A DNA stretch of 64,000 nt, taken from positions 9,777 to 73,776 of the forward strand of contig JAAYSG010000060.1 in the NCBI GenBank assembly GCA_012518435.1, given 5' to 3'. This DNA comes from Bacillota bacterium (lineage in GTDB: Bacteria; Bacillota; DTU030). The notes under the pieces were generated by a model. That model had not been told where the DNA came from and ran no database searches. It was given only the letters and a program-made list of their open reading frames with translations. Both the position numbers and the translations under genes were made by a program. This document shows, one piece after another, positions 22,037 through 61,061 of this stretch. Numbering within the stretch: the first letter of the stretch is position 1; each line of letters opens with the position of its first letter.

Positions 22037-22444
22037 CTAATTTCCACCGTAAAAGCGGTGATAGGCAACCACACCTTCCACAAAACGGAGGAATTTTTCA
22101 AAGTCTTCTTGTCCTTCTTCCCCCGGGCGGATCTTGTCGATGGCCAAGCCCAGTACCTCGGACAAGGGTTGCACCTGTCGGCGCTGCCTGGCCGCCGCAT
22201 AGGCCAGGTGCACCTTCAAGAGCACCGCTGCCTGTTCTGCGCTTATATCTTTGTCCCGGCGTTTAATTTGCAAGTCCACTTTGCGCACCCCGTCTAAAAA
22301 CTTCCGAATTTGCGAGGTCTTCAGTCCCGCATCCTTGACAGTTTTGGCTAAATTATCAGCCCACTGCACCAGATCTTTATTGTCCACAGCAGCCAAATAG
22401 TCCATCTTCTGCAGTTCCTTTTTAATATCTCTAACCGTCCTCAA
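22037..22444 (-). CDS. csm2: Type III-A small subunit Csm2 (Cas11)
   Basis: It is a 135-aa all-helical basic protein between cas10 and csm3. Confidence 0.75.
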   Translation of the reverse strand: MRTVRDIKKELQKMDYLAAVDNKDLVQWADNLAKTVKDAGLKTSQIRKFLDGVRKVDLQIKRRDKDISAEQAAVLLKVHLAYAAARQRRQVQPLSEVLGLAIDKIRPGEEGQEDFEKFLRFVEGVVAYHRFYGGN

Positions 22445-24867
22445 CCTTCCCCACCTCCCCTGGTAATTAAATCAATGACCCTTAGCACCGCTGGTAGATA
22501 ATAGCTTAAATTTTCCCCGTTCATGGCCGCCCCCAGCAAGGGCCGGTAGAAACTGTCCCGATAAGATCTGTTTCTTTCCTCGGAACGGGTGAAGAGGTAA
22601 TGGAGCCGGGGTATTAGCCAGGCCCTCTCCCCGTTTTCCCCACGGGCATAGGCGGCGGCCAAATGGGCCAAATTGTGGAGAAAACTTTTACTATAGGCCA
22701 AGGGCCTTATCCTTCCCTTTTCACCATAGTGTGCCCCCCGCAGGAATAAGGTGTAAAAATCCTTGAGGGTACTACACCCTCCGGTGGTAACCTCCCTCCC
22801 TCCCACCTTATCCCACTTGAAGGCCCAATGGGAAAAGGCAAAGCTATCCCGCCCATTATCCTTTGCCTTCTGCTCCCCTTGGCCGGCCATTTCCGCCAGC
22901 CGATAAAGGGGGATTTTCTCATCCGCCACCGTCAACCCACCCGATAGGGTTAAGGAGGGATTATGGCCGGTGTAGCGGCGAAAATCCCCATGGATCTGAT
23001 AGGCAGCCTCCAAAGCATCATTCCAGGCTCCCAGCAAAAATAGATCATCCCCTCCGGCATAGACCAAATTCAACCACATTTTACGGCCTTGATGGACCAA
23101 GAGGAGGGGATCCTTTATTTCCTCAGCCAAGAAGGCAGGCAAATAGTATTTAAAGTAAAGGTTAAGCCTCTCTGAAAGGTCATTTAGGCGGGCAAAGGAG
23201 AACTTATCCTCCAGCAGGCCACGACTAAAAACCGACCCTAATCGATCCACATCCAGGCGCAACACTCCTAATTTTTCCGCCCCTATACTATTTTCAACTA
23301 GGCCGTCAAATTCTTTACAAGTAAAATAACTGCCGGAGGGAAAATTTCCCGCAGCCACCGACACGGGTTTTGATAAGACCCAGGGGGTATCCAGGAGATA
23401 ATATCCAGCCATGGGCCCGGAATAGTTGCCCCGAGTGAAAAGAAAAGGTACCCCCATCAGATCCAAGAGCAAGCCATCACCCTTGTTGGTGGCTTGTCCC
23501 GATTTGGGAAGGCGGTAAAATTCCTTTACCTCCGGCAACAGCTGGCCTAAACTAAACATCTGGGCACAGAAGGGGCAGACCAACAGATCATCCTCACCGG
23601 GATAGGGAATTAGTTCTTTACCCCTTTCCTGGCAAATAGGGCAAGATTCCTCTGCTGTTTCCGGGGCAAAAATACTGGCGTAATCCTCCTCAATCTCCCG
23701 CAACCACTTTCTTTCCTTGGCAATACTGAGTTTTTGTCCCACCATATGCCAAGTTTTACCCAAGCCACCGGCCAAACCCACCGCCGCTAGCGGTTCCATC
23801 GCCAGGGAAAGGTAAAGGGTTGTACCAAAACACTGGTATAACCAGCTATTAACCTGCCGCTGGACAGCAGTTATCTTTTCCCGCGCCCTTAGAGTATTTG
23901 GGACCAGGAGGTATAAACCCCCACCACTGGCATAGATGATGCAGGCCCGGGGCAGATCCAGCTCCGTCACTAGACGGGTTACAAGGGCTTCCAGGAGTAA
24001 TTCCAAATAAAAAGAACGCCCCCGCACCGTCTTCAGAGCCCCTTTGGAAGATAAGGTATAAATAAAATCTTGTATCCCAGAGAGATCACCCCCCAGAAGG
24101 AGGTAACGCTCCTCCTCTTCATCCTCAATTTTCTCCCTCAGGTCTTCCCCGGCCCAGGAGGCACCATCCTCCTGCAAATACTTATAGGTGCACCAGGCCA
24201 AGGCAGCCGTAGTTTTTAAGTGGTGATAGAGGGAAATGTCGGGCGCTCCCCCCAGTGCGCATGAATTCCCAGGAACATAAAGGGTGTACTTTTGCAACAA
24301 AAGAAGCAGAGTATCCTCTGCCACACCCCTGGGGTCCTGGGCCAACTCTCCCCGTAACCCTTGCCACAGCCCCTTATATAAGTTAGTAAAATCCACAGTC
24401 CCCTTTCCCCCCACCCGGGGATAATTGTAGTCCACCGCCGGCCGCGGTTCCCAGACTAAATCTTCTTTCACCGGCTCCCTATGGGGCAAGGCAACCCCTT
24501 TAAAAACCGGGGACAGCAGACGGTCCGGTTCCAAATCATCCTCTCCCCCAACTCCCAATCCCTCCATCCCGGTGGCAATATTATTTGCCTGGGCCACCAG
24601 GTAAAGACTATTTTGCAAATTATAATTTTTTCCCGGCAGGGCCTCCGGCGCTAATTCCCCATATTGGGCATCATCTTCTTTTAGCAGATGGTGCCGCCTA
24701 ATAATTTCCACCACATTTTGCGACAGACCAGCCCCTTGGGCCCAGAGGGCACCTAGTTCCTGGTGCCGCAGTTTGCGCCTGTCATCATCCTTTGCTAAGG
24801 AGCGGAAAATCAGCTTTCCAATATCATGCAGCAGTGCACCGGTAACAATATCCTTGCGCAGAGCCAT
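22441..24867 (-). CDS. cas10: Cas10/Csm1 large subunit, with both the HD nuclease domain and the GGDD cyclase palm present
   Basis: There is an N-terminal HD motif (ALLHDIGK), zinc-finger cysteines (CPICQ...CPFC) and YAGGDDLFLLGAW (GGDD). The size is 808 aa. Confidence 0.92.
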   Translation of the reverse strand: MALRKDIVTGALLHDIGKLIFRSLAKDDDRRKLRHQELGALWAQGAGLSQNVVEIIRRHHLLKEDDAQYGELAPEALPGKNYNLQNSLYLVAQANNIATGMEGLGVGGEDDLEPDRLLSPVFKGVALPHREPVKEDLVWEPRPAVDYNYPRVGGKGTVDFTNLYKGLWQGLRGELAQDPRGVAEDTLLLLLQKYTLYVPGNSCALGGAPDISLYHHLKTTAALAWCTYKYLQEDGASWAGEDLREKIEDEEEERYLLLGGDLSGIQDFIYTLSSKGALKTVRGRSFYLELLLEALVTRLVTELDLPRACIIYASGGGLYLLVPNTLRAREKITAVQRQVNSWLYQCFGTTLYLSLAMEPLAAVGLAGGLGKTWHMVGQKLSIAKERKWLREIEEDYASIFAPETAEESCPICQERGKELIPYPGEDDLLVCPFCAQMFSLGQLLPEVKEFYRLPKSGQATNKGDGLLLDLMGVPFLFTRGNYSGPMAGYYLLDTPWVLSKPVSVAAGNFPSGSYFTCKEFDGLVENSIGAEKLGVLRLDVDRLGSVFSRGLLEDKFSFARLNDLSERLNLYFKYYLPAFLAEEIKDPLLLVHQGRKMWLNLVYAGGDDLFLLGAWNDALEAAYQIHGDFRRYTGHNPSLTLSGGLTVADEKIPLYRLAEMAGQGEQKAKDNGRDSFAFSHWAFKWDKVGGREVTTGGCSTLKDFYTLFLRGAHYGEKGRIRPLAYSKSFLHNLAHLAAAYARGENGERAWLIPRLHYLFTRSEERNRSYRDSFYRPLLGAAMNGENLSYYLPAVLRVIDLITRGGGEG

Positions 24868-24973
24868 TCCCCCCCTTCATGGTCTAGATAGGCTGTAATA
24901 AATAATGGTTGCAATTCCCGGAGGGAATTAGGATATTCCTTATAACCTTCTCTTTTCCCATTCCAACTTACAA

Positions 24974-25239
24974 GGTTACCAAGTTTCAATTCCCACCAGG
25001 GAATTAGGAGTGTTTTAACTAAAATAAAACAGTTCAGCCGGGATTACATTTCCACAGTTTCAATTCCCACCGGGGAATTAGGCATTGTTTGGGCGTGATG
25101 TTAGGAGTATGTGCTGTCGTCTAAGAATATTTCAATTCCCACCGGGGAATTAGAAAGTGTTTTGATTTCCTTGGAGACGGTATCAAGTGGCGGCCTGGGC
25201 ATTCTTCAATTCTCAAAGGGAATAGAGAGAGCTTACTAA
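24974..25239 (-). CRISPR. Degenerate CRISPR array A: 4 repeat copies of a variant repeat, TTTCAATTCCCACCGGGGAATTAG..., with spacers of 48, 36 and 38 bp
   Basis: Repeats lie at 24974-25009, 25058-25093, 25130-25165 and 25204-25239 (the last is strongly decayed). The AATTCCC/GGGAATT stem is the same as in array B, but the loop (ACCG) and the 3' half differ. Confidence 0.55.
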
Positions 25240-25452
25240 TAACGGGAGGATGACAATAATACAATTTGACATTTTAGGTGCAAATTCCTTCCAAAACGCC
25301 GCAAATAGTAAATAACCCCTTTGCATAACCCCAAACCCCTGAAATATAAGATTTTAGACCATGCAAGGGGCCCGATGAGGAAAATAATGGGTTTTGTCCA
25401 TCGCCACTCATTGGGACAAATTGGGCTGTGGGTAAGGCAAAACCCCCTCGTC

Positions 25453-26415
25453 ACATAATTCCCCAGGGGAATTAGAGGGTGTTTTGACATAGGCACAATG
25501 GGACTTGCTCCCATATTCGATAGTTTCAATTCCCCAGGGGAATTAAAGGGTGTTTTGACCTTTTCCAGCGCATGGAAAGCGCCGGCGCCGTGATTTTCAA
25601 TTCCCTGGGGGAATTAAAGGGTGTTTTGACGCCATATCTTTTATAATTTTGGAAATGATCGTGGTTTTCAATTCCCTGGGGGAATTAAAGGGTGTTTTGA
25701 CGGGCCTTTTGGTGTACCAACTGTGCTAGTACGGTCTTTCAATTCCCTGGGGGAATTAAAGGGTGTTTTGACCGGCGGCAATTGCTGCACACAGCAAGCC
25801 CAGCATCTTTCAATTCCCTGGGGGAATTAAAGGGTGTTTTGACGGAAGCATGAAGGAACTATCGGAAGTGATGGAACTTTCAATTCCCTGGGGGAATTAA
25901 AGGGTGTTTTGACCTTGGAGGATCTGCAAGCGTATATCCGTGGCGATCTTTCAATTCCCTGGGGGAATTAAAGGGTGTTTTGACCGGGGTTCACCGTAAG
26001 TTATTGGGTAAACTTTATCTTTCAATTCCCTGGGGGAATTAAAGGGTGTTTTGACACCCGCCCCCGGTATGTTTAATTTCCGGGGTAATCTTTCAATTCC
26101 CTGGGGGAATTAAAGGGTGTTTTGACCGCGGATCGCGGCGGTGGATTAGGTTGGAATGGAGATTTCAATTCCCTGGGGGAATTAAAGGGTGTTTTGACAC
26201 GGCTTTGTGGTGGCAGACTATGTGGTAGCCGTGATATTTCAATTCCCTGGGGGAATTAAAGGGTGTTTTGACTTATCACTATCGGAATTGGCCATGCGGA
26301 GGCAGAATTTCAATTCCCTGGGGGAATTAAAGGGTGTTTTGACTTGGCCGCCGTCCTGTATCTTTCTTCCGCCTTCTGATTTCAATTCCCTGGGGGAATT
26401 AAAGGGTGTTTTGAC
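25453..26415 (-). CRISPR. CRISPR array B: 14 repeats of 36 bp and 13 spacers of 34-38 bp. The repeat on the plus strand is TTTCAATTCCCTGGGGGAATTAAAGGGTGTTTTGAC, inferred to be transcribed as GTCAAAACACCCTTTAATTCCCCCAGGGAATTGAAA.
   Basis: Repeat starts are 25453 (degenerate, truncated), 25524 (CCCCAGGGG variant), 25595, 25666, 25737, 25808, 25878, 25949, 26020, 26091, 26163, 26237, 26308 and 26380. Degeneracy is at the low-coordinate end. Confidence 0.95.
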
Positions 26416-26790
26416 AGTGAGCTCTGTAACCCTTACTGTATAAGGCCCGAAATGCTGCTTTGCGCGAAACTACAAATTGGCTTGTAATATACTTTGACCT
26501 TCATGTCGGAAACTCCTCCTAAGCGTGTCAAACAAGGATCGCGAAGCTAGCGGGTTTTTATGTCCCGTTGACCTATGCGAATGCGGGCAGAGAGAGCCCC
26601 GCCCCTGATATGGAAGGGCCATGTCAAGACCCCATCCCGGGGAGTATTAGGGCTATTTTGCAAGTATACGCACAGGATCCAAAGTGTTGATTGGCGCGAG
26701 CCAAGGGATTAGCCCTAGTATGCTAATTACTTTGACTCATATCCCAGGAAATCCTTCAAGGTAGAAATAATAAAACCCACAATTATAAAT
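26416..26790 (-). promoter_or_regulatory. Putative CRISPR leader (AT-rich, non-coding) flanking the conserved end of array B
   Basis: It is a roughly 370-bp non-coding AT-rich segment next to the best-conserved repeats. This orientation matches the cas operon direction and a GTC...ATTGAAA repeat polarity. Confidence 0.45.
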
Positions 26791-32652: not shown

Positions 32653-33420
32653 TCAAATATAGGCTGCTATTAACTGGGCGGCCTTTTGACCGGAGAGGAG
32701 CATGCCCCCAAAGATAGGGCCCATCCTGCAACCACCTGCAACATTGGTGGCTGCCATGCCAGATACAAATAAACCGGGGGCAAGCATGCGGGTGTTCCTC
32801 ACCACGTCTTCCTCACCCAATACTGGATTCATAAAGGATTCCTTCCGTATATCAAGGGGAATCCTTTTATTATACAAATTGGCAAGGACAGCGTCATGCC
32901 CCGTTGCATCCAAGACAGCCTTGGCCATCAGTACCATTGGATCGACGTGTAAACCTGACATTTCGATTGTACTGTTGTTAACAACAACACCATCTACCCT
33001 ATCCCCCGTACAATGAATATCCTCGGCAAACATTAAATTAAATAGGTTTACATTTGCTTGGGAGGAAACGGCAAATATAAGCTTGCTGGCCAGGGCCAAG
33101 GACGAAACTACCAGTGCTTCTTCATCTTCCCGATAAGGAATCGCAAAGTTTTCAAGGATATCCCTTGTATCCTTCTGTAATACAACCTTGTTAAAACTCA
33201 TGGCCCCACCCCAGATTCCTCCACCGGGTACCAAGTGCCGGTCTATTATGGTTACATTGTATCCATCCTGAGAAAGCTCATGGGCGCATATTAGGCCCGA
33301 AGGGCCCGCTCCCACAACTATAACATCCGACTCCACCGCCCGTTCCAGATCCCGGAAATAATTCCGGAGAATCTTACGGCTGGCCTGTCCTGCATTAACG
33401 GGGTTTTTAAAAATGTTCAT
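32653..33420 (-). CDS. thi4: Thiazole synthase Thi4 family (sulfide-dependent, His-type, non-suicidal)
   Basis: The dinucleotide fold VVGAGPSGL is present. DATGHDA has His where yeast THI4 has its suicide Cys. The C-terminus GMLLSGQKAAQ also fits. A TPP riboswitch lies upstream. Confidence 0.85.
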   Translation of the reverse strand: MNIFKNPVNAGQASRKILRNYFRDLERAVESDVIVVGAGPSGLICAHELSQDGYNVTIIDRHLVPGGGIWGGAMSFNKVVLQKDTRDILENFAIPYREDEEALVVSSLALASKLIFAVSSQANVNLFNLMFAEDIHCTGDRVDGVVVNNSTIEMSGLHVDPMVLMAKAVLDATGHDAVLANLYNKRIPLDIRKESFMNPVLGEEDVVRNTRMLAPGLFVSGMAATNVAGGCRMGPIFGGMLLSGQKAAQLIAAYI

Positions 33421-33538: not shown

Positions 33539-33554
33539 AAACCTTTGTGTCAGC

Positions 33555-33640
33555 TTTGTTCCCTACGCTGGCATTACCCAGATCAGGTTACAGGGTCAGA
33601 AGTAAATACTTCCCTCTCAGCCGGTTACCCAGCTCCCCTT
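33555..33640 (-). ncRNA. TPP (THI-box) riboswitch aptamer
   Basis: The minus strand reads GGGGAGCUGGGUAACCGGCUGAGAGGGAAGUAUUUACUUCUGACCCUGUAACCUGAUCUGGGUAAUGCCAGCGUAGGGAAC. The CUGAGA, ACCCUG and CCUGAUCUGG.UAAUGCCAGCGUAGGGAA blocks are all present. Confidence 0.85.
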
Positions 33641-33735
33641 TTTTTTCCATTATAACCCCAAACAGCAGTGGCGTCAAATCAAACACAAATTTTGAGCCAA
33701 CTAGTTTGTCCAGTTACCAGTTTTCACCGCCTCAT

Positions 33736-39103: not shown

Positions 39104-40663
39104 ATGGATAACTTTTCCCTCCCAGCATCCGTTGGGGTGGCGGCCATTGGTTTAAAAACAGGGCTTATCATACCCAATGATGACATCGCCGCCATTACCG
39201 CAGACACGGTAAAGCCCTTTGTTGAGGACGGAGACATTATTTGCGTTACGGAGGCGGTGGTGGCCCGTTCCCAAAATAGGTATATAACCTGTGATGAGCT
39301 ATCCCGCGATATCATCAACAAGCTAAAACTAAAACCCAAGAGCACCCTGGCCGTCATCAGCCCCATTGCCAGCCGCAACCGCTTTGCCCTCATCATGAAA
39401 TCCCTGGCCATGGCCACCCGAGGGGGTAAGGTCATTGTCCAGCTCTCCATGCCCTTTGATGAGGTGGGCAACAGAATCATAAACGAAGAATTTGCCACCA
39501 CCCGCCTGCGCTTGAAAAAGGTCTTAAAAAGCCTGCGGGAGGCCCGGGAAAACACTCCCCAACTCAATGTCCTTATTCGGGAAATAATCGCCGCCCTAAA
39601 ACTACAGGAAATGGGCTACCACATCCTGAGCATCCGGAAAATCACAGGCCGGGGAATAGCCGATTTAACGGTGCGAACTCCGGAAGGAAAGCTGGCAATA
39701 GCCGAGGTAACCTTTGACCACTTACAAAGAACCGCCGCCAAGGCCCTGGGCATTAAAAAAGATGTCAAAGGGGCAGAACAAGCCCTGGCCATAGCCGTTG
39801 ACTTGGGACACTACAGCATTAAGATCGTCGATGCCCACTCACTTGTGGAGAATCCGGAGGAAACAATCCCCGCTGTGTACAGATTTGATAGCCAATTGGA
39901 TAGCTACCACGATCCCTATGTTATTTATACAAATGAAATGGAAGACCTCACCTTTTCCCACCCCATAACGGGGTTGGACTATCGCCACCTGTACCTGGAA
40001 ATGATTGCCGCCGGGGGGGCCAAGGGGGAAATCATTTTTTCCAATAATCCCCTCAAGGTCTATGACCGGGGTTACTTAAACGGTATTTGCATCGGCGCCG
40101 TCCACGAAGGGGAAAAGCTGCGGGAGCTGTTTGAAGCCTTCGGCGCCAATGTACCGGTCATAACCATCGGTGATGTGGGCCCCGGGCAATGGGGCGTAAT
40201 AGGTTCCAATGTATCCGATTTTGAGGAAGGGCTGCTGAAACTGCTGCCGGGTGACCCCGATGCCATGGCCAACAAAATAAGGGATAAAATAAGAAAGGTA
40301 AGTGGCAAGAAGGCAGAGGTATTGATCTTCGGTGACGGTGCCTATAAAGACCCGGATTCGGGTATATATGAGCTTGCCGATCCACACCCCACCGTTGGCA
40401 TAAGTGATGGCCTTTGCGGGGCATCCCTGCGTACAGGTGTAAAACTAAAACTACAGGTGGATACCCTCTACAATCAAGGTTATTCCCGGGAAGAAATAGA
40501 AAATTTCATCAAGGAACTGCCCCAGGAGGCATCGCCCGAAGAACTGGGGACCACCCCCCGGGAAATGACCAGCATCATCGCCACCTTAGCCGATTTGGTA
40601 ACGGGCTCCGCCGATTTGGGTACCCCCATTGTCCTCATCCGGGGTTTTAAATTTTCCCCCTGA
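39104..40663 (+). CDS. Hypothetical 519-aa protein whose N-terminal region resembles the CofE / F420-0:gamma-glutamyl ligase fold
   Basis: IGLKTGLIIPNDDIAAIT...VEDGDIICVTEAVVARSQNRYI resembles the CofE N-terminal pattern. The rest of the protein is unassigned. Confidence 0.35.
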   Translation: MDNFSLPASVGVAAIGLKTGLIIPNDDIAAITADTVKPFVEDGDIICVTEAVVARSQNRYITCDELSRDIINKLKLKPKSTLAVISPIASRNRFALIMKSLAMATRGGKVIVQLSMPFDEVGNRIINEEFATTRLRLKKVLKSLREARENTPQLNVLIREIIAALKLQEMGYHILSIRKITGRGIADLTVRTPEGKLAIAEVTFDHLQRTAAKALGIKKDVKGAEQALAIAVDLGHYSIKIVDAHSLVENPEETIPAVYRFDSQLDSYHDPYVIYTNEMEDLTFSHPITGLDYRHLYLEMIAAGGAKGEIIFSNNPLKVYDRGYLNGICIGAVHEGEKLRELFEAFGANVPVITIGDVGPGQWGVIGSNVSDFEEGLLKLLPGDPDAMANKIRDKIRKVSGKKAEVLIFGDGAYKDPDSGIYELADPHPTVGISDGLCGASLRTGVKLKLQVDTLYNQGYSREEIENFIKELPQEASPEELGTTPREMTSIIATLADLVTGSADLGTPIVLIRGFKFSP

Positions 40664-40893: not shown

Positions 40894-41958
40894 ATGAAGT
40901 TGTTTCAGGACATGGTGGAACAGGATCATGAACAGGTGGTATTTTGTCAGGATAAGGTGTCGGGCCTAAAGGCAATCATCGCCATCCACGATACCACCCT
41001 AGGCCCGGCCCTGGGGGGATTGCGCATCTGGCCCTATGCTACAGAAGAGGAAGCATTATTCGATGTCCTAAGACTTTCCAAAGGAATGACATATAAAAAT
41101 GCCGCCATGGGCTTAAACCTGGGAGGCGGCAAAGCGGTAATGATGGCCGACCCCAAAACAGACAAAACGGAGGAACTATTCCGGGCCTTTGGTCAATTTG
41201 TTGATACCCTGGGGGGCCGCTATATTACTGCCGAAGACGTTGGCTCCAGCCTGTCTGACATGACTACCATTAGGAGCGTTACACCCTATGTGGGAGGCCT
41301 CCCCGATACCAGTGGCGATCCCTCCATTGTGACCGGCTACGGCGTCTTCAGGGGGATCCAAGCCGCCCATATGCACAAGTTTGGTACCAGCGATCTGGCC
41401 GGTAAGACGGTGGCCATCCAAGGGGCAGGCAAGGTGGGTACCTACCTTATGTCCCACCTAATGGATGCCGGAGCCAAGGTCCTCATTACTGATATTTCTC
41501 CCGAACGGGTAGAGGCCGCTGTGGAAAAGGGAGCAATTGCTGTGGATCCGGCCGAGATATTTGATGCCCAGTGTGATATTTTTGCCCCCTGTGCCCTGGG
41601 TGGGGTTATTAATGACGAAAGTATCCCCCGGCTGAAGGCCAAAATTGTCGCCGGTTCTGCCAACAACCAGCTCCTGGAAGCCCGCCATGGCCAGGCCCTG
41701 GCCGAGCGGGGCATCCTCTATGCCCCCGACTTTATTGTCAACGGTGGCGGTGTCATCAATGTTGCCCAAGAATTAGACCCTGCCGGTTACAACCGGGAGT
41801 TGGCCCAGGCCAAGGCGGGGAAAATCTATGACATCCTTCTAGAAGTCTTTGCCCTGGGAGAAGAAAAGGGTCTGCAACCCCACGAAGCAGCAGACCTTTA
41901 TGCCGAAGAAAGAATTGAGAAGGCCCTAGCCCAAAAGCGGGTTTACATCCCCCGCTGA
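40894..41958 (+). CDS. Leucine (Leu/Phe/Val) dehydrogenase, Glu/Leu/Phe/Val dehydrogenase family
   Basis: GGLRIWPYATEEEAL, KNAAMGLNLGGGKAV (catalytic Lys region) and the NAD Rossmann fold GAGKVG are present. Confidence 0.85.
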   Translation: MKLFQDMVEQDHEQVVFCQDKVSGLKAIIAIHDTTLGPALGGLRIWPYATEEEALFDVLRLSKGMTYKNAAMGLNLGGGKAVMMADPKTDKTEELFRAFGQFVDTLGGRYITAEDVGSSLSDMTTIRSVTPYVGGLPDTSGDPSIVTGYGVFRGIQAAHMHKFGTSDLAGKTVAIQGAGKVGTYLMSHLMDAGAKVLITDISPERVEAAVEKGAIAVDPAEIFDAQCDIFAPCALGGVINDESIPRLKAKIVAGSANNQLLEARHGQALAERGILYAPDFIVNGGGVINVAQELDPAGYNRELAQAKAGKIYDILLEVFALGEEKGLQPHEAADLYAEERIEKALAQKRVYIPR

Positions 41959-52624: not shown

Positions 52625-54256
52625 CTATTGGGACATGAAGTACTCAATATCCTCCTTTACAGTGCCGATACCCGCAATACCGAATTTGTCAACCAAAACC
52701 GCCGCCACATTGGGTGAGAGAAAGGCCGGTAGGGTGGGACCCAAGTGAATGTTTTTGACACCCAGGTAGAGTAGGGCCAGAAGTACTATGACAGCCTTTT
52801 GCTCGTACCAGGCGATATTGTAGGCTATGGGCAGCTCATTGACGTCATCGAGTCCGAAGGCCTCCTTGAGTTTTAGGGCAATGACTGCCAGGGAGTAGGA
52901 ATCATTGCACTGCCCGGCATCCAATATCCTGGGAATACCGTCAATGTCCCCCAACTGGAGTTTATTATAACGATATTTAGCACAGCCTGCGGTGAGGATA
53001 ACGGTGTCCTGGGGCAGACTTTGGGCAAATTCAGTATAGTATTCCCTAGACTTCATACGCCCGTCACAACCGGCCAAAACAAAGAACTTTTTAATGGCCC
53101 CCGATTTAACCGCGGCAACCACCTTGTCCGCCAGGGATAACACCTGGTTATGGGCAAAGCCCCCTATTATGCTCCCGGTTTCAATTTCGGTGGGAGGGGG
53201 AAGGGTTTTAGCCAAGGCAATGATTGGGGAAAAATCCTTCTTACCCTTTTCATCTGCTTCAATGTGGGGGCAGCCGGGATAACCGGTGGAACCCGTTGTA
53301 AATATCCTGTTTTTAACCTCTTCACTCCGGGGTGGCACGATGCAGTTGGTGGTAAAGAGAATTGGCCCCCCAAAGGATACGAATTCATCAATTTGCTGCC
53401 ACCAGGCATTGCCGTAATTGCCCACAAAGTGCTCATACTTTTTAAAGGCTGGATAGTAGTGAGCCGGCAGCATTTCACCGTGGGTGTAGACATCAACACC
53501 GCTCCCCTTGGTCTGTTTTAGGAGCTGCTCAAGGTCAGTGAGATCATGGCCAGAAATTAGGATGGCCGGATTATCCCGCACACCAATATTGACCTTTGTC
53601 ATCTCCGGGTTCCCAAATCTATCTACATGGGCCTGATCCAGAAGGGCCATGACCTTTACCCCATATTCCCCTGTTTTTAGGGCTAAGGCAACCAGGTCAT
53701 CAACGGAAAGGGCATCATCCAATGTGGCAACCAAGGTCTCATAGATGAAGGAGTTGATGGCCAAGTCCTCTTTGCCCATATTTTTGGCATGCTCGGCATA
53801 GGCTGCCATACCCTTTAAACCATAGGTAATTAACTCCCGGAGGGAGCGCACGTCTTCATTTTCGGTGGCCAATACCCCCACAGATGCGGCCTTCTCCAAC
53901 ATGGCCTCTCGGGAATCCACAGTAAAGGTTGCTGCCTCATGGAGCTCCTCCACCGCAGCCCTTTTCCCAAGTTCATCCCTAAGGGCCAATAGTTTTTTGA
54001 TTTGTATTTCCAAGGATTCATCGTCAAAATTTGCATTGGTTATGGTCATAAATAGACTGCTCAGCACTTGATAATTTTCTTCCGCTAATTTGCTAATATC
54101 CAATTTCCCCTTGACCACTATTTCGGCAACACCCTTAACTGTATAAATCAGGAGATCCTGGAGTTTAGCCACTTCCTCATTTTTTCCACAGACGCCCCGC
54201 ACCCTACAGGCTTCTCCCCTTGCCGTCTCCTGACATTGATAGCAAAACATACCCAT
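52625..54256 (-). CDS. hcp: Hybrid cluster protein / hydroxylamine reductase
   Basis: The N-terminal cysteine cluster [25 protein letters not shown] is present and the size is 543 aa. Confidence 0.92.
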
Positions 54257-54518: not shown

Positions 54519-54974
54519 ATGAAAGCCATAACCATTGCCCGTATAGGAATTATAGCCGCCCTCTACTTCATCATCACCTACTTCCTCCTCCCCATCAGCT
54601 TTGGTGCAATCCAATTGCGGGTGGCCGAGGGCCTAACTGTGTTGCCCATCCTTTATCCCGAATCCATTGCCGGTCTATTTATAGGAGTCCTTCTCTGCAA
54701 TGCCCTTCTGGGCGGCTTGGGCCTAGTTGATGTTGTAGTAGGAAGTTTAACCACCCTTGTTGCAGCCTACATAAGCTATAGGTTTCGCCACAGCTACATT
54801 GCCTACCTAAGCCCCATTATCCTCAATGCCTTTATTATAAGTCTTTACCTTCACCTTTTGGCCGGACTTCCCTATTGGCTCACAGTTTTATCCATCGGAA
54901 CTAGCCAGGCCATAGTCGTCTTTGCCATTGGCTACCCCCTCATTTGGTACCTGCGCCGATATAGGGAAAGATAG
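54519..54974 (+). CDS. Small 5-TM membrane protein, QueT/ECF S-component-like
   Basis: It is 151 aa. The QLRVAEGLTVLP motif resembles the QueT (DUF988) family. No preQ1 riboswitch was found upstream. Confidence 0.4.
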   Translation: MKAITIARIGIIAALYFIITYFLLPISFGAIQLRVAEGLTVLPILYPESIAGLFIGVLLCNALLGGLGLVDVVVGSLTTLVAAYISYRFRHSYIAYLSPIILNAFIISLYLHLLAGLPYWLTVLSIGTSQAIVVFAIGYPLIWYLRRYRER

Positions 54975-54991: not shown

Positions 54992-55036
54992 AAAAATTTA
55001 AGGGGGCAGATGCTTATAAGCATCTGCCCCCTTTCA
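54992..55036. terminator. Bidirectional terminator built on a 30-nt perfect palindrome
   Basis: The palindrome GGGGGCAGATGCTTATAAGCATCTGCCCCC lies between the QueT-like gene (+) and trxA (-). It is followed by TTTC on the plus strand and TTAAATTTTTC on the minus strand. Confidence 0.6.
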
Positions 55037-55129: not shown

Positions 55130-55456
55130 CTAGAGGTACCGCTCCAGCCTATCCAACAATTCCTCCTGTGTTTGATAACCGGTGAAACGGATGACCTCCT
55201 TTCCCTCCTTGACCAAAAGCAAGGTGGGAACACTGAGAATACGGAAGCGGCCGGCCAATTCCTGGTTTTCCTCGGCATTTAACTTTACCACCCTTAGCCG
55301 GCCAGCCAATTCCCGGGCTACTTCCTCCAAGACCGGTGCCAGTCTTTTACAGGGCCCACACCACGAGGCCCAAAAATCTATTAGCACTGGGATTTGGGCA
55401 TTGAGTACGACGGTAGAAAAATCCTCTTCCACAATCTCTTGCACAATTTCTGGCAA
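55130..55456 (-). CDS. trxA: Thioredoxin
   Basis: It is 108 aa with the WCGPC active site. Confidence 0.9.
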   Translation of the reverse strand: MPEIVQEIVEEDFSTVVLNAQIPVLIDFWASWCGPCKRLAPVLEEVARELAGRLRVVKLNAEENQELAGRFRILSVPTLLLVKEGKEVIRFTGYQTQEELLDRLERYL

Positions 55457-55610
55457 CTACCACTACCCCCTATGAATTTAATTCAGTTCTATTTTCTCCA
55501 CCACTGGAAAAACTCCTCCCTGGAATGGCGGATAATTACCTTCCCAATGGCATTTTCCCTCTCCGTTCCCAGGGCTATTCCAGTTGGGGGTAGTTTTTCC
55601 CCGGGTTTTG

Positions 55611-57260
55611 CTAGATGCCGTACTTTTTAAAAATCCGCTCCACTCGTTCTTCCTCGCTGAGGATCTCGTCTGTTTCCGGATCGACGGCGTAGATGGCTCC
55701 GTTAATGGGCTTGGTAACCACCTCGCCACAGGCGTAGGCATTGCCCTTAAGCTGGGGTGTATCCATAAGGCCAATTTCCACCGCCTTGGTCAAGGTGGCC
55801 GGATCTGCCAAGGGATCTTCCACCTTATCTCCGCCCAAGGCCTTGATGGCGTTGATCAGGACCTGGGCTTCCTTCTTTAGCTCTTCCTTACGCTCAATTA
55901 CTTCCGGGTCATGGGTCATGTCGGGCATCCCGTGGAGGCAGTTTTGGATAACCTTCCGGGCAATCTTACAGCTTTCGATAACATCCTCTGCTGTAGCTGC
56001 ATGATGGGCTTCACAGTAGCCAACCACATGCATAATGTCAGGTTTCATGGCCATTTGTACATAGGTTGAGGCCCCCAACTGACCAATTGCATAGGCAGGA
56101 TCCACAGGATAGCTCAAAAGGCCCGCTCGGGTTTGCCGTAGGCAACGGAAGTTTTCATCCTGCAGGGCCTCAGCCAACTCAGCCTTGGCCAACATCTTGG
56201 CTAAATCCATTTTATCCGAAAGGGTCGGTGGGGTATTGAACATGTAGGTGGCGATATAGGTCTTTACTCCCATCTTCTTGTTTAGGTAGGCGCTAAGATA
56301 TGCCGACACAACTGCCACCACATCGTGAGCATCCCGCAGTTCCCAGTGGTGAGGTTCGTTGGCCTCCACTGGTACATCGTGATCACCGTGCCACTTCATG
56401 AGCCGTAGATGTTCCTCTATTGATTCCTGCAGGGTCATGGGGCCCCGGCCATCTACCAGATTAAACCAAAATATGGAGGTGGCACACCAGGCATTTTTAA
56501 TGGTCCGCCGTAGCATTTCCCCGTAGCGCAGGAGCTGAGCCGTGCCGGCATAGGAGCGCATAAGGGGATAGTTGCCCCTACGGGTCGCTTCGTAAAGTTC
56601 TTCAAAGTCAGCCTCGGAACGAATGGGCACCCCCCCTGCCCCCCGCCTGCTTGGATCTGCCTTTTCCGGGGTAAAGAAGTTTTCTTGGGCATCCTGATCT
56701 GGGCCCAGGGAAAGAACATCAAGGATTTCCGCCTCGGCAATTTTCTTAATCCCTTCCACCGTGGGCTTGATACTATCTGCCGGAAAGCCAAAATGATGCC
56801 GGATAACCGGGAAGGGCTTTTTCCATTCCAGCCGGGGTACCAATTCATCGGGAAAGTCTGCTTCCGTTCGTTCGCCGATATCCTGTCCCTTCAACCAGGC
56901 AATCACATTTTCCAAGGGTTCCTCCCCGGTGAAGTAGGCTTCAAAAAGGCCCACCTCCTTGGCCCTTTCCGCCACCGGGGGTGTCCCCCCAAAGACAAAA
57001 CGTCTATCAAGGAGTCCCGCCTCTTCTAGGCCTTGTTTAAGTTCTAGTAAAAGACTGTATCCCGTTTCCGGTGTAAGTCGATAGCTTATGGCAACCACAT
57101 CGGGATCCGTCTCCCTAATGGCACCAATGACATCTTTAAGGGGTGTAGCGGCACCAAGAAACTCCGTCTGATAGCCCTGTTCCGCGGCCAGGCGAAGGAA
57201 ATTTAGTGTTCCGGCCACGTGGACACATTCACCTATGGGTGCTCCCAATATTTTAGCCAT
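55611..57260 (-). CDS. Uncharacterized 549-aa protein with an N-terminal cobalamin-binding-like Rossmann domain fused to a large unassigned domain
   Basis: The N-terminus ILGAPIGECVHVAG...DVVAISYRLT...FVFGGTPP aligns with the glutamate-mutase S / MCM B12-binding domain. The ligand His is conserved, but Cys replaces the Asp of DxHxxG. The remainder has no rSAM CxxxCxxC. Confidence 0.45.
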   Translation of the reverse strand: MAKILGAPIGECVHVAGTLNFLRLAAEQGYQTEFLGAATPLKDVIGAIRETDPDVVAISYRLTPETGYSLLLELKQGLEEAGLLDRRFVFGGTPPVAERAKEVGLFEAYFTGEEPLENVIAWLKGQDIGERTEADFPDELVPRLEWKKPFPVIRHHFGFPADSIKPTVEGIKKIAEAEILDVLSLGPDQDAQENFFTPEKADPSRRGAGGVPIRSEADFEELYEATRRGNYPLMRSYAGTAQLLRYGEMLRRTIKNAWCATSIFWFNLVDGRGPMTLQESIEEHLRLMKWHGDHDVPVEANEPHHWELRDAHDVVAVVSAYLSAYLNKKMGVKTYIATYMFNTPPTLSDKMDLAKMLAKAELAEALQDENFRCLRQTRAGLLSYPVDPAYAIGQLGASTYVQMAMKPDIMHVVGYCEAHHAATAEDVIESCKIARKVIQNCLHGMPDMTHDPEVIERKEELKKEAQVLINAIKALGGDKVEDPLADPATLTKAVEIGLMDTPQLKGNAYACGEVVTKPINGAIYAVDPETDEILSEEERVERIFKKYGI

Positions 57261-57283
57261 TTGTCTTCCTCCTTTGTCCTTGC

Positions 57284-58384
57284 TTATGATTGAAAGCCCT
57301 CTGTTACAAATTGCAGCATCCCTTCCCCATCAAGACCACCTAAACCAAGGTTTTCCACATTGCGTCCTAGCCCCCAAAAATCCTTATCATAGAGGATACA
57401 GGATAAATCCACCATAACCCGGGAAGCTGGTGTAGCCACACCCAAAGCCTCTCCCAGGGAGGCAATGGGCACCAGCCCAGTGGAGATATCTTCCAGGATG
57501 TAACGAACCTGCATGGTTTTAGGCCCATCAATGCCGTGATAGGCCTCGGTATTGTGCAGCAATTCAAAGAGGGTTTCCCCCTCACTGCCATACACCCGCT
57601 TTATCCAAGCCGCCGCCGACTCCATTTCAATACCCAGGGCCTTGGCCACGGCAATCCGCTCATCATCTACCTTCCCCATGGCCTTGGTCACCATTTCCGT
57701 CATACCTTCCACATAAAATTTGAAGGATACCTGGGACTCAATCCGGCCGGTATTAAGGAGCACAGGGGTAGGATGGAAGACAGCCCCTATATTATCAAGG
57801 CTTGTTTCCAAGACATTGGCCGCCGCAATAAACTGGGGCAAGACGGGTTTTATACAAGCAAGGACTGCCTGCGTATCCTTAGCCGGGAAGGCCGCCAAGG
57901 CTACTTCCTTCTTGATTCCCTTTACTGCCACCCGGGCCGGTCCTGAAATGCGACAGGCATAGAGGAGGGTTTGGGTTTCGGCAATCTTTACCTGCACCTT
58001 GACACCCGACTGGCGCAACACTTGGGAAAATTCCAGGGCACCACCGGTGCGCCCAGGGTTAATGATAATGATTTGTCCATCTTCCAAATGGGGAGCCAAG
58101 GTTTCCGCCATAAACCGGTGGGCAAAGGCAGGTACCACCACCATAATAACTTCTACACCGGCCACTGCCGCGGCCATGTCTGTGGTAACCTTATTGACAG
58201 GGCCAACTCCCTCCAGCACTCCCTCCACCGTCACGGCACCCTTTTCCTTAATGGCGGCTATTTCTTCCGGAAATTTATTGTAGATATTGACCTCTTTTCC
58301 CAACATCCCCAGATGGGCAGCAAAGGCATGGGCACCATTGCCTGCACCTAAAATAGCCACCCGGTTAAATCCCTTCTTCGTCAA
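57284..58384 (-). CDS. NAD(P)-dependent opine-dehydrogenase-like oxidoreductase
   Basis: The N-terminal Rossmann fold reads RVAILGAGNGAHAFAAHLG. The overall size of 366 aa and the helical C-terminal domain fit the octopine/nopaline dehydrogenase family. Confidence 0.6.
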   Translation of the reverse strand: MTKKGFNRVAILGAGNGAHAFAAHLGMLGKEVNIYNKFPEEIAAIKEKGAVTVEGVLEGVGPVNKVTTDMAAAVAGVEVIMVVVPAFAHRFMAETLAPHLEDGQIIIINPGRTGGALEFSQVLRQSGVKVQVKIAETQTLLYACRISGPARVAVKGIKKEVALAAFPAKDTQAVLACIKPVLPQFIAAANVLETSLDNIGAVFHPTPVLLNTGRIESQVSFKFYVEGMTEMVTKAMGKVDDERIAVAKALGIEMESAAAWIKRVYGSEGETLFELLHNTEAYHGIDGPKTMQVRYILEDISTGLVPIASLGEALGVATPASRVMVDLSCILYDKDFWGLGRNVENLGLGGLDGEGMLQFVTEGFQS

Positions 58385-58491
58385 ATCTTTAACCTCCTTC
58401 TCTGTGTTTCAATTCAGTCACCACTCCGGTTTTGCCCGTAACCTCCCCCCTTTCCTTTCGCCCATTTCTTCCCCCGCATCAGTAGATGGTC

Positions 58492-59955
58492 TTAGTTAAT
58501 AAGGGAAAACCTCCTATGGGAACCATGGTAGGTCTTTGCCACGGCTGGTTCCTGCCAATCTATGCTTTTTTTCATAAAGCCCAGGGCCTGCCTAGGGGCA
58601 ATTTCCCCCAAGAGACCGGCTGCCCAGAGGATATAATGTCGGTCTAGCAAAAATTGCGGTGTTGTGGGCTGCAATACTAAGGGGTTTTGGTTTTGGGCAA
58701 AGGCCCGGGCCAAGACCTCCCTGGGATTTTCCAAATGCACAAAAATACCCCCGGTGGCCAGGACATAGCCAACACCGGTTAGATCCTTACCCTCCTGGAT
58801 AAAGTATTGACCGGTTGGCGTGCAAAATTCCCTGAGGGTACCCACATGCCGCGCCACCGCCTTTTCAACTGCAGTGACAGCCATGCCCCTGTCCAAGGCC
58901 CAATCTGTTGGTGTTTCCGGGAGCCAGCCCAGTTCAAAGGACAAACGGGATATCATTGCCTCCACATTTACATCCACCCCGATATTTTCCTGGACGCGTT
59001 CCTTACCGGCACTCTCCAAAAGGGATAAGGCACTGACCCGCAGCCCCAGATCACCCTCCACTGTCCTTTTGGCCCGAGGTTCCGGCAATCCCCGGACTAT
59101 GGTGCGACTGCGCCTTGGTTTGCCTTCTGCCACGGAATGGACATCTGTGGTGGCCCCTCCCACATCAATAACCATGAGCTCACCGATTCCCTCCTCCCCC
59201 GGAACACCATCGGCTAAAAGTCGGGCACCGGCCAGGACTGCCGCCGGAGTTGGCATCAAAATACCCCCATCGACAAAGGCCTCGGCCCGCTGCAGGCCCT
59301 TGGCCTCTACAATTTTTTCCATAAACACCTGCCTAATGGTATCCCGGGCCGGCTCGATGTTTAGTTCACCCAATTCGGGCATGACATTCTTTGTAACGCG
59401 AACATCCTTGCCCGACTCCCGCAAAATACGGGCTGCTTCGGGGGCTACCACCTTGTTCCCGGCCAGAATAATAGGCACATTGATCCGGGATCTGGCCAAA
59501 AAGCGAGCATTATGCAAAAGTACCTTCTTGTCCCCGCCATCAGTACCGCCAGCCAAAAGAATAATATCCCCCGGTTCCTTTTCCAGAAGGGACAGTTCTT
59601 CCTTGGTAAGTTCATAGGCATAGGCCCCCAGTACCCGGGCCCCGGCCCCCAAGGCCGCCCTACGGGCTGCTTCTACAGTAAAATCTGGCACAAGGCCAAT
59701 GGCTATCATTCGCAGACCACCGGCGGCGCTGCTGCAGGCCAGCTTGGGGTGAAATTGACACTTCCCCCCCAACCTTTCTTCAATCTTGGCAACTGCCTCT
59801 TCCATTCCCAAGGTGATATCTGTGGCAATGGTTGTCAAGGAAGTAGCCCCTGCCAATAAAGTTCCATCATCCATATCCACCGCCACCACCTTGGTGTAAG
59901 TACTGCCAAAGTCAATCAATAGGGCCGTACCCACTTTATTTTCCCTCCCCACCAT
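58492..59955 (-). CDS. GlmL/MutL-like ASKHA (actin/Hsp70-fold) protein, possibly a reactivase/chaperone of a B12-dependent mutase
   Basis: LLIDFGSTYTKVVAV (phosphate-1) and MVIDVGGATTDV (phosphate-2) are present. The size of 487 aa and the architecture match the glutamate mutase L component. Confidence 0.65.
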   Translation of the reverse strand: MVGRENKVGTALLIDFGSTYTKVVAVDMDDGTLLAGATSLTTIATDITLGMEEAVAKIEERLGGKCQFHPKLACSSAAGGLRMIAIGLVPDFTVEAARRAALGAGARVLGAYAYELTKEELSLLEKEPGDIILLAGGTDGGDKKVLLHNARFLARSRINVPIILAGNKVVAPEAARILRESGKDVRVTKNVMPELGELNIEPARDTIRQVFMEKIVEAKGLQRAEAFVDGGILMPTPAAVLAGARLLADGVPGEEGIGELMVIDVGGATTDVHSVAEGKPRRSRTIVRGLPEPRAKRTVEGDLGLRVSALSLLESAGKERVQENIGVDVNVEAMISRLSFELGWLPETPTDWALDRGMAVTAVEKAVARHVGTLREFCTPTGQYFIQEGKDLTGVGYVLATGGIFVHLENPREVLARAFAQNQNPLVLQPTTPQFLLDRHYILWAAGLLGEIAPRQALGFMKKSIDWQEPAVAKTYHGSHRRFSLIN

Positions 59956-59958
59956 AAT

Positions 59959-60738
59959 TTAGTACCCATAGGAAATACCATCATCATACCTGCGGCGAAT
60001 AGTAAAGCGATATTTTTCCCCCCGATAATAAACACGACGAAACTCCACCGGAATATCCTTACTGGTATATGCTATGGAAGTTACCTTGATAATGGGCGCC
60101 CCCTCCGGTACCTGCAAAAGTTCCGCTATGTTTAAGCCAGCAACAACAGCCTCGAACCCCTGATCTGCATAGGCCAAATCCAAACCTAATTTTTGGGCAT
60201 GGTAGCTTAAAAGGGGAATCCACAGTCCGTATTTGCGCCGGTCCTCATCGCCTTCATCAATTATGCTGCGGCCCAGCTCATAGGGCAGATAAATTATGTA
60301 CAAACCAGTGGGCTCGGCATCTCCCTTACCCAAGGCCCGTAAATGAACTATATCTTCTCCAGCCTTAACCTGTAATATTTTTGCCATCTCTATATCCGCC
60401 GATATTATCCGGTGTTCCAAGACCTCCATTCCCGGCCGCCAACCCCTGGATTTAATGGTATCCATAAAATTAGTAATGGCATTAACCTGTTGCTCCACTT
60501 TTTTGGGAGCAGCAACAAAGGTACCTTTTCCTTGTATGCGGTAAAAGGTCCCCTCTGCAATAGCCTCTGCCAGCGCCTGGCGGACAGTGGTTCTACTCAA
60601 ATTAAAACGTCGGCAAAGCTCCCTTTCAGAGGCAATCTGCTGGTTAGGCCGTAAGTTACCCTTCTCTATTTCCCCGTAAAGATAATCCTTTAGGCGTTTA
60701 TATAGTGGTCGGGTTTCATTGTTACCTAACAATGCCAC
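59959..60738 (-). CDS. GntR-family (HutC/UTRA subfamily) transcriptional regulator
   Basis: The N-terminal winged HTH reads ASERELCRRFNLSRTTVRQALAE, with a C-terminal UTRA-like domain. Its stop overlaps the GlmL-like start. Confidence 0.85.
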   Translation of the reverse strand: MALLGNNETRPLYKRLKDYLYGEIEKGNLRPNQQIASERELCRRFNLSRTTVRQALAEAIAEGTFYRIQGKGTFVAAPKKVEQQVNAITNFMDTIKSRGWRPGMEVLEHRIISADIEMAKILQVKAGEDIVHLRALGKGDAEPTGLYIIYLPYELGRSIIDEGDEDRRKYGLWIPLLSYHAQKLGLDLAYADQGFEAVVAGLNIAELLQVPEGAPIIKVTSIAYTSKDIPVEFRRVYYRGEKYRFTIRRRYDDGISYGY

Positions 60739-61061
60739 ACTCTCCCCTATAATTAAGTTGTCACTACCTGTCGTTCCACATGTTACTACCTGTTATGATC
60801 AGTATACTATTGTCTTTGACACTATATTTAGAATTCCTCCTTTATTTTATAAATTATTATTGTTAATTTTGTGACGAGTCTTGGGACGGCAAAGATTCCC
60901 TTAGCCATGGGATCCGTTGGAAATAGCTGGGTTTCCCATAATGTCATGCGCCATTAATAAGCTAAAAGATAAGGGGAAAATAATCATCTGAATATTGGGC
61001 CTTTCTTTCTTTGTGAAAATACAATACCAATATGTTATAATTGCCTGGGGGGGAGACGACC

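Follow-up and report, generated by a model that had tools for sequence, protein, structure and literature searches.

A predicted cobalamin-dependent module of a fused GlmS-GlmE-like mutase and an opine dehydrogenase in a Bacillota operon

We know of only about a dozen isomerase reactions that depend on adenosylcobalamin (AdoCbl). The described systems closest to the one treated here are glutamate mutase of Clostridium cochlearium and C. tetanomorphum, in which the subunits GlmS and GlmE are separate chains accompanied by GlmL, and the aminomutases OraS/OraE and KamD/KamE, which carry a lysine that binds pyridoxal phosphate (PLP) in their B12 domain. A further relevant enzyme is N-(1-D-carboxyethyl)-L-norvaline dehydrogenase (CENDH), the opine dehydrogenase of Arthrobacter sp. 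1C (PDB 1bg6); with NAD(P)(H), CENDH-type enzymes form or cleave the C-N bond of a secondary amine derived from an amino acid and a 2-oxo acid. Here, we analyze an operon that combines relatives of these proteins. It lies near the end of a 64,000-nucleotide stretch of DNA from a Bacillota bacterium (GenBank assembly GCA_012518435.1, contig JAAYSG010000060.1, positions 9,777 to 73,776; hereafter “the window,” to which all positions refer), and it encodes a 549-aa protein with a B12-binding domain, an opine dehydrogenase (ODH), a GlmL-like protein and a GntR-type regulator. The differences from the described systems are plain. The S and E parts are separate in glutamate mutase and fused in the window protein; the DxHxxG motif of the former reads CxHxxG in the latter, which is only about 15% identical to GlmE and scores far under the cutoffs of the glutamate mutase families. 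The partner of glutamate mutase is methylaspartase, as in the operon of Desulforamulus reducens, whereas the partner in the window is an ODH. The OraS/OraE and KamD/KamE systems likewise have a partner dehydrogenase of a different family, and the window protein lacks their PLP-binding lysine.

The pairing of an ODH with a B12-binding protein has been in print since 2009 and is not a new discovery. Zhang, Rodionov, Gelfand and Gladyshev (2009; PMC2667541) predicted a novel B12-dependent family with a distant N-terminal B12-binding domain, invariably adjacent to a pfam02317 gene, and Mavromatis et al. (2009; PMC2626281) noted an operon of this type (Hore_09740/Hore_09750) in thermophilic anaerobes, with its role given as unknown. 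These papers covered about 11 genomes, of thermophilic anaerobes and Chloroflexi, and reported that Ddl and AsnB were sometimes encoded nearby (PMC2667541, PMC2626281). The predicted family appears to be the one found in the window, as the taxa overlap (e.g., Thermoanaerobacter and Chloroflexi). Absent from the 2009 accounts are the assignment of a GlmE fold, GlmL, the gene fusions and the cysteine substitution described below, and the family now extends to 546 species genomes, archaea included. Later, Lin et al. (2013; PMC3751872) listed the ODH Teth514_2108 of Thermoanaerobacter X514 as up-regulated in an ethanol-adapted strain. Our full-text search for opine dehydrogenases in connection with B12, mutases or GlmL returned no functional study, only the two genome-context notes and this transcriptome mention. 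Hence, the statement in an earlier sequence-only reading of this DNA, that the gene combination was not recognized as a described pathway, holds with respect to functional characterization but overlooks that the ODH/B12-protein pair was flagged in 2009 (PMC2667541, PMC2626281). NCBIfam (June 2026) contains no model for the mutase family. The public names of its members are inconsistent and probably wrong, among them “methionine synthase,” “methylmalonyl-CoA mutase cobalamin-binding subunit” and “cobalamin-dependent protein.”

What kind of protein is the 549-aa product, which is encoded at 55611-57260 on the minus strand? The sequence-only reading had described a B12-binding domain in its first 120 residues or so, followed by a large unassigned domain. 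The former description was borne out: PF02310 matches residues 3-119 (56904-57254, minus strand) with 41.1 bits against a cutoff of 32.1, and in Foldseek comparisons this Rossmann domain resembled GlmS and HcmB with template-modeling (TM) scores of 0.75-0.84; corrinoid proteins were matched as well. The latter description can now be replaced. Searches of PDB sequences, both with the protein and with a family profile, matched B12 domains alone and no barrel, so a comparison of folds was needed. We therefore turned to an AlphaFold2 model calculated from 26 homologues (pLDDT, the predicted local distance difference test, 87; pTM, the predicted TM score, 0.86). When this model was compared to the PDB, the epsilon subunit of glutamate mutase occupied the top rank (6h9e_B, E = 6.6e-16; 1cb7_B, E = 3.8e-15; TM scores of 0.57-0.66), and ornithine 4,5-aminomutase, methylmalonyl-CoA mutase and lysine 5,6-aminomutase followed. 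By this fold comparison, the C-terminal domain (residues ~140-549; 55614-56843, minus strand) is predicted to be a catalytic TIM barrel of the GlmE type. Traces of the relationship can also be found in the sequence: Met_asp_mut_E (PF06368) matches residues 383-514 weakly (21.5 bits; cutoff 26.6), and in another family member, P0248, the same model covers nearly the entire barrel with 27.5 bits, just over that cutoff. A hidden Markov model built from GlmE homologues (at least 78% identity) was too narrow and did not detect the family. Neither a radical-SAM motif nor a methyltransferase domain was found in the protein by inspection of the translated open reading frame (ORF) or by Pfam and NCBIfam searches, and neither profile nor structure searches assigned it to a well-characterized non-B12 family. 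The modeled fold thus leads us to regard the 549-aa protein as a fused, highly divergent homologue of GlmS and GlmE. It had been said that the cluster contains no GlmE or GlmS; this is correct for separate subunits, but the 549-aa protein appears itself to be a fused homologue of both.

The cofactor-binding motifs of this putative mutase are recognizable, yet altered. Residues 8-17 read PIGECVHVAG, and HMMER pairs the G-E-C-V-H-V-A-G therein with G-S-D-C-H-A-V-G of GlmS. Cys12 consequently falls at the Asp position of DxHxxG, in agreement with the earlier remark on this substitution, and the resulting CxHxxG motif, C12-V-H14-V-A-G17, is located at 57210-57227 (minus strand). Among 192 family sequences, His14 and Gly17 are conserved in all; position 12 is Cys in 184 (96%) and Asp in 7 (3.6%). 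The replacement of Asp by Cys is a trait of the family, although members with Asp exist as well. In the SxL motif, the sequence is S-Y-R-L, where an invariant Arg61 takes the place of Leu; the GG motif is retained. In the barrel, seven to eight arginines are invariant, and an invariant pair, E417-A418, was aligned by hhalign with E330-A331 of GlmE, the glutamate of which we take to contact the adenosyl ribose. A thiyl-radical relay through an active-site cysteine was also considered and rejected: Cys259 is replaced by Ala, Ser or Tyr in 13 of the 192 members.

The gene immediately upstream of the mutase gene encodes the ODH (57284-58384, minus strand; 366 aa). Its likeness to an opine dehydrogenase, already perceived in the sequence-only reading, is pronounced: it aligned with Arthrobacter CENDH (1bg6) with E = 1.9e-88 and 44% identity over 348 residues, and it matched PF02317 (Octopine_DH) with 150 bits and PF01210 with 36.6 bits. 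The NAD(P) fingerprint GxGxxG/A is present (AILGAGNGAHA). The window ODH has the catalytic residues His202, Arg292 and Glu296 (CENDH numbering), as do at least 95% of the 68 mutase-linked ODHs compared; this triad and the fingerprint are thus common to CENDH and the window enzyme. Further, the distance between CENDH and the mutase-linked ODHs is no greater than the distances among the latter. Judged by its sequence, then, the window enzyme truly belongs to the opine dehydrogenases and is of the CENDH type. One difference is of particular interest: the mutase-linked ODHs share a family-specific, invariant arginine where CENDH has Ala111 and octopine dehydrogenase has Gln118, hinting at an extra carboxylate on the substrate, i.e., a more acidic substrate.

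To assess how far the pairing extends, we relied on the distribution of the mutase family and its genomic neighborhoods. The family comprises more than 7,500 sequences in a 90%-identity collection; at 50% identity, there are 987 clusters with E ≤1e-3 and 267 with E ≤1e-30. It was present in 546 of 185,579 species genomes scanned. Bacterial carriers include Thermoanaerobacter, Caldanaerobacter, Tepidanaerobacter, Thermosediminibacter, Halanaerobiales, Anaerolineae and Sumerlaeota, and archaeal carriers include Bathyarchaeia and Hadarchaeota. Neighborhoods were counted in the 80 best loci, 44 of which are “fully flanked,” that is, they have at least 5 kb of sequence on either side. An ODH gene was found within 5 kb of the mutase gene in 71 of the 80 loci and in 42 of the 44 fully flanked ones; of the 73 loci with sufficient upstream sequence, 56 have it as the next gene upstream in the same orientation. 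The commonest operon consists of the ODH and mutase genes only, and some Anaerolineae have two ODH paralogues upstream of the mutase. In several instances, the two genes are fused (P0031, 924 aa, with 17 member sequences, and ORFs in loci L018 and L027), which supports a functional coupling of the products. The operon of the window was itself found on at least 12 metagenome contigs (one of the samples being a biogas fermenter), and a version in a Bacillota metagenome-assembled genome (MAG) has a mutase that is 95% identical. As identical or related operons recur in numerous species and on numerous contigs independent of one another, the gene arrangement is not due to chance. Co-occurrence across genomes, suggested earlier as a check of the cluster, thereby singled out the ODH and the mutase as its conserved core. 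The proposed cluster of three genes and a regulator stands to this extent only, as GlmL proved to be specific to certain clades and the GntR regulator to the closest relatives.

GlmL is encoded upstream of the ODH (58492-59955, minus strand; 487 aa), and the assignment to GlmL-like ASKHA ATPases made from the sequence was corroborated by profile scores well over the cutoffs: 594.7 bits vs. 475 for NF040745, 451.7 vs. 204 for TIGR01319 and 556 vs. 27 for PF13941. With the GlmL from the canonical glmS-glmL-glmE-methylaspartase operon of D. reducens, it shares 55% identity. Its AlphaFold2 model has the ASKHA fold (pLDDT 84), with Foldseek matches to acetophenone carboxylase/hydantoinase-type proteins, sugar kinases and, at rank 12, the diol-dehydratase reactivase DdrA. 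A glmL gene was located within 5 kb of the mutase gene in 26 of the 80 loci, 11 of them fully flanked (25% of 44); these loci span Bacillota, Sumerlaeota, Anaerolineae, Bathyarchaeia and Hadarchaeota, and mutase-GlmL fusion proteins exist (P0266, P0272, P0276). GlmL is therefore a clade-specific helper. It had been read as a GlmL without its mutase; because the 549-aa protein appears to be a fused mutase of the GlmS-GlmE type, GlmL is not orphaned. The GlmLs beside the mutase are automatically named “methylaspartate mutase accessory protein GlmL,” although no methylaspartate mutase is present.

Taken together, we think it fairly likely, on the strength of fold, motifs and homology, that the operon encodes a two-enzyme module, composed of a single-chain radical isomerase of the AdoCbl type and a CENDH-type ODH, along with helpers. 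In this module, the N-terminal domain of the mutase would bind cobalamin in the base-off/His-on mode via His14, with Cys12 in place of Asp, and the GlmE-like C-terminal TIM barrel would hold the substrate. The conserved adjacency and the gene fusions suggest that the ODH and the mutase may act in consecutive steps on one metabolite. GlmL would serve as an ATP-dependent ASKHA chaperone or reactivase that swaps out the damaged cofactor, as has been proposed for glutamate mutase; to our knowledge, such an ATP-dependent activity is putative in canonical GlmL as well. The central proposal of the sequence-only reading, an uncharacterized cobalamin-dependent system, is hence upheld in a corrected form: a fused, GlmS-GlmE-like mutase plus an ODH, as a feature of the whole family. 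The word “pathway,” on the other hand, may overstate the case, because most genomes carry only the two-gene unit.

Could the fused protein simply be an isoform of true glutamate mutase that converts L-glutamate to (2S,3S)-3-methylaspartate, with the ODH taking over from methylaspartate ammonia-lyase in using this product? In structure, GlmE is the closest match, PF06368 matches weakly, and GlmL passes the “equivalog” threshold set for the accessory protein of methylaspartate mutase, besides being so similar to a GlmL from a canonical operon. Nevertheless, the glutamate mutase models scored far below their curated thresholds (TIGR01503, 18.1 bits vs. 390.1; NF002612, 20.8 vs. 110), the identity to GlmE is low, and a gene for methylaspartase (methylaspartate ammonia-lyase), which is present in the canonical operon, was found neither in the window nor in any of the 80 related loci. 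The residues that handle glutamate in GlmE, which we take to be Arg66, Arg100, Arg149, Glu171 and Tyr181, also seem to have changed. In a global hhalign alignment of the family with GlmE (probability 7.8%), E171 corresponds to Ser262, Y181 to Asp270 and R100 to Gln/Thr; R149 and R66 may match R235 and R154/K147, respectively, at that same probability. This alignment was run both with a single sequence and with an alignment of homologues, each time with low probability, and is anchored only by short motifs, which lie on most strands. As the glutamate-binding residues are apparently not kept, a substrate other than free L-glutamate is suggested, and we regard a true glutamate mutase as unlikely. 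Somewhat less likely still is an enzyme like the PLP-dependent ornithine 4,5- or lysine 5,6-aminomutases, with the ODH as the NAD(P)-dependent dehydrogenase that acts after the mutase. Those enzymes rank next in the fold comparison, but GlmE is the closer relative, and opine dehydrogenases act on secondary rather than primary amines. Moreover, the lysine that anchors PLP is presumably located 11 residues after the cobalt-binding histidine (Lys629 in ornithine 4,5-aminomutase, Lys144 of the beta subunit in lysine 5,6-aminomutase). The position 11 residues past the coordinating histidine is an invariant Ala25 in the family alignment, in which residues 1-125, i.e., the B12 domain, contain no conserved lysine. 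We infer from these sequence features that the substrate is not free L-glutamate and, because the PLP lysine is not kept, that the enzyme is not a PLP-dependent aminomutase.

Two further explanations appear very improbable to us. The names that databases give to relatives (“methionine synthase,” “MCM cobalamin-binding subunit,” i.e., of methylmalonyl-CoA mutase) and the sequence of the B12 domain, which is most similar to that of corrinoid proteins such as 4jgi and MttC, would be in keeping with a corrinoid methyltransferase or a methionine-synthase-like protein; the searches for a methyltransferase domain described above yielded none, and the barrel is modeled as GlmE-like. Alternatively, the ODH and the mutase might be neighbors only through inheritance of a shared gene block while serving unrelated processes, and the flanking genes are indeed often of the housekeeping kind (nadD, rsfS, lgt and the gene for the H+-PPase). 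This explanation, which we rate no higher than the preceding one, is hard to square with an adjacency that spans bacterial and archaeal phyla while its surroundings change, and with gene fusions that are independent of one another.

Returning to the module of isomerase and ODH, we examined the other genes that accompany it for hints about the substrate. Genes for a Ddl-type ligase and a 4HBT thioesterase are neighbors in Sumerlaeota and Tepidanaerobacteraceae, genes for AsnB and a YheO-like regulator in Thermoanaerobacter, a Crp-like regulator gene in Halanaerobiales, and genes for Dpp/Opp transporters, a C45 (AAT) peptidase and a receptor for cyclic di-AMP in Anaerolineae. No third pathway enzyme or transporter was consistently found among the related loci; Ddl, 4HBT, AsnB, Lgt, Dpp/Opp and the C45 peptidase are each bound to particular lineages. 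One Anaerolineales MAG (L020; CAZYHC010000013.1, 1338-15442) has the mutase and two ODH copies among several other genes: those for a sarcosine/opine-oxidase-like alpha-beta flavoenzyme with a small subunit, a HutG/agmatinase-family hydrolase, an aldehyde:ferredoxin oxidoreductase, and the A and B subunits of an ATP-dependent lactamase of the oxoprolinase/caprolactamase type. This arrangement looks like one for the catabolism of an N-substituted amino acid or a lactam. In another locus (L088, 35-4463), the mutase, P0248, is fused to a GshB/RimK-like ATP-grasp domain, with an ODH upstream and a C26 gamma-glutamyl hydrolase downstream. A variant mutase of 732 aa (L089, 163-4105) has a weakly M15-peptidase-like tail and is followed by LeuC/LeuD-type subunits of the aconitase family. 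There is also a paralogous, mutase-like subfamily of 600-636 aa that is about 31% identical and keeps the xHxxG and ISYRLTP motifs. One such protein, P0281 (620 aa, 31% identical), has the canonical DxHxxG motif and an insert of about 60 residues; it is encoded on the metagenome contig TONG22-1 scaffold_2723 (L086, 3063-10023) in a glycan-biosynthesis cluster with an ATPgrasp_ST ligase, a short-chain dehydrogenase/reductase, an aldo-keto reductase, an Octopine_DH protein, a DegT aminotransferase, FdtA and glycosyltransferases. The trio of mutase, ODH and ATP-grasp enzyme thus recurs in a second context. As a group, the accessory neighbors point to N-substituted or glutamyl-type amino-dicarboxylates, without identifying the substrate.

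An acidic, N-substituted substrate is accordingly hinted at from several sides: by the barrel arginines, by the extra arginine of the ODHs and by the glutamyl, lactam and secondary-amine chemistry of the neighbors. As the probable substrate of the module, we consider an amino-dicarboxylate or a secondary amine of the opine type, and the most likely mechanism is a radical isomerization of such a compound, coupled to an NAD(P)-dependent step that forms or cleaves a C-N bond. With low confidence, we envision that the mutase would rearrange a dicarboxylate moiety that resembles glutamate or aspartate within an N-(carboxyalkyl) amino acid (opine) and that the ODH would add an oxo-acid “handle” and/or take it off, such that the net product would be an isomerized amino acid or oxo acid. 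A more specific version, to which we assign a clearly smaller chance than to the module as such, is a PLP-independent “carrier” system: the ODH would join a common amino acid to a 2-oxo acid by reductive condensation, the mutase would isomerize the opine by shifting its carbon skeleton or its nitrogen, and the ODH (or, where a genome has two copies, its paralogue) would cleave the product oxidatively, releasing a different amino acid or oxo acid. SbnA and SbnB, which proceed through an N-substituted glutamate intermediate, are a precedent for such an install-and-cleave logic.

Several observations weigh against the picture of an isomerase/ODH module. For every member of the family, cobalamin binding, the adenosyl form of the cofactor and the substrate are predictions made from sequence. 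The replacement of Asp by Cys in DxHxxG and of Leu by Arg61 in SxL means that the mode of cofactor binding could depart from the canonical one. The mapping of residues onto GlmE is tentative, derived as it is from a low-probability alignment, and is suggestive only. At a few loci (L025, L038), no ODH gene occurs in the surrounding 10 kb. GlmL is missing from the 5-kb surroundings of the mutase in about 75% of the fully flanked loci, and its reactivase role is itself putative; the modeled fold matches generic ASKHA proteins, with DdrA appearing only at rank 12. Finally, the informative neighbors are anecdotal, each being confined to one or a few lineages, and many flanking genes are housekeeping genes.

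In the window, the genes discussed above belong to a row of five minus-strand ORFs at 55130-60738, all of which were confirmed by the ORF listing at exactly the positions and on the strand claimed for them. The first gene of the operon (59959-60738, minus strand; 259 aa) encodes a GntR/HutC-family regulator with a helix-turn-helix domain and a UTRA effector domain; the Pfam scores (54.8 bits for GntR, PF00392; 89.5 bits for UTRA, PF07702) substantiate its previous classification. The gaps between the first four genes measure 3 nt (gntR-glmL), 107 nt (glmL-ODH) and 23 nt (ODH-mutase), and, given the 3-nt gap, gntR is probably co-transcribed with glmL and autoregulated. The regulator is local to this lineage: gntR homologues were found in the closest relatives, L005 and L007, but the 44 fully flanked loci from other species all lack one. 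Two direct repeats, ACAGGTAGT(A/G)ACA, precede the gntR start codon by 20-55 nt, at 60781-60793 and 60759-60771, with 22 nt from start to start. These are the sole exact matches to this pattern in the window, in which up to two mismatches gave six matches vs. 1.0 expected by chance. In related MAGs, the repeats are kept in the orthologous upstream region of L005 and partly in that of L007. We consider the ACAGGTAGTRACA repeats (60759-60793, minus strand) a candidate GntR operator, at which the GntR/UTRA protein would repress its own operon until a metabolite of the pathway binds to it. No cobalamin riboswitch or other known RNA was found near the operon.

Directly 3' of the mutase gene lies a thioredoxin gene, identified by its ORF and by Pfam (55130-55456, minus strand), after which comes a strong, terminator-like hairpin with a 15-bp stem (55000-55033, minus strand). 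The thioredoxin may be co-transcribed here. Its downstream position was noted correctly in the sequence-only reading, but membership in the system was rejected, since other species have no such gene in any of their 44 fully flanked loci, and in L006 its orientation is reversed. The operon is flanked by genes for a prismane (hybrid-cluster) protein (52625-54256, minus strand) and a queuosine-precursor transporter, QueT (54519-54974, plus strand), both of which are unlinked to the operon in other genomes.

Other features of the window were recorded in passing. A type III CRISPR-Cas locus occupies 22441-26423. It includes an 808-aa Cas10/Csm1 protein with HD, Csm1_B and palm2 domains (22441-24867, minus strand) and, after it, two adjoining CRISPR arrays, the repeats of which are related yet distinct; the first (24909-25162) has about 4 copies and the second (25452-26412) about 14, and Rfam CRISPR-DR63 matches at 25523-25559. 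A riboswitch for thiamine pyrophosphate (33548-33644, minus strand; 58.5 bits, above the gathering score) is situated just upstream of an ORF at 32653-33420 (minus strand). A 519-aa protein (39104-40663, plus strand) matches F420-0:gamma-glutamyl ligase over a split region, and a gene for an amino-acid dehydrogenase of the Glu/Leu/Phe/Val type (40894-41958, plus strand) adjoins it.

The mutase family that emerges from this analysis is large, phylogenetically broad and clearly distinct from known AdoCbl isomerases, with an unusual Cys-His motif and an opine dehydrogenase as its near-constant partner; at the same time, it is a variant within the known class of B12 isomerases. Because Thermoanaerobacter, Caldanaerobacter and Tepidanaerobacter are cultured carriers, the question of its function is directly testable. 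The answer would correct thousands of misleading annotations. If an AdoCbl mutase were indeed to act on secondary-amine opines, this would constitute a new class of B12 reaction, and a carrier system of the type outlined above could supply anaerobes with beta-amino acids, branched dicarboxylates or 2-oxobutyrate. Solving the function would thus provide a new B12 reaction and a physiological role for the otherwise obscure CENDH-type opine dehydrogenases of bacteria.

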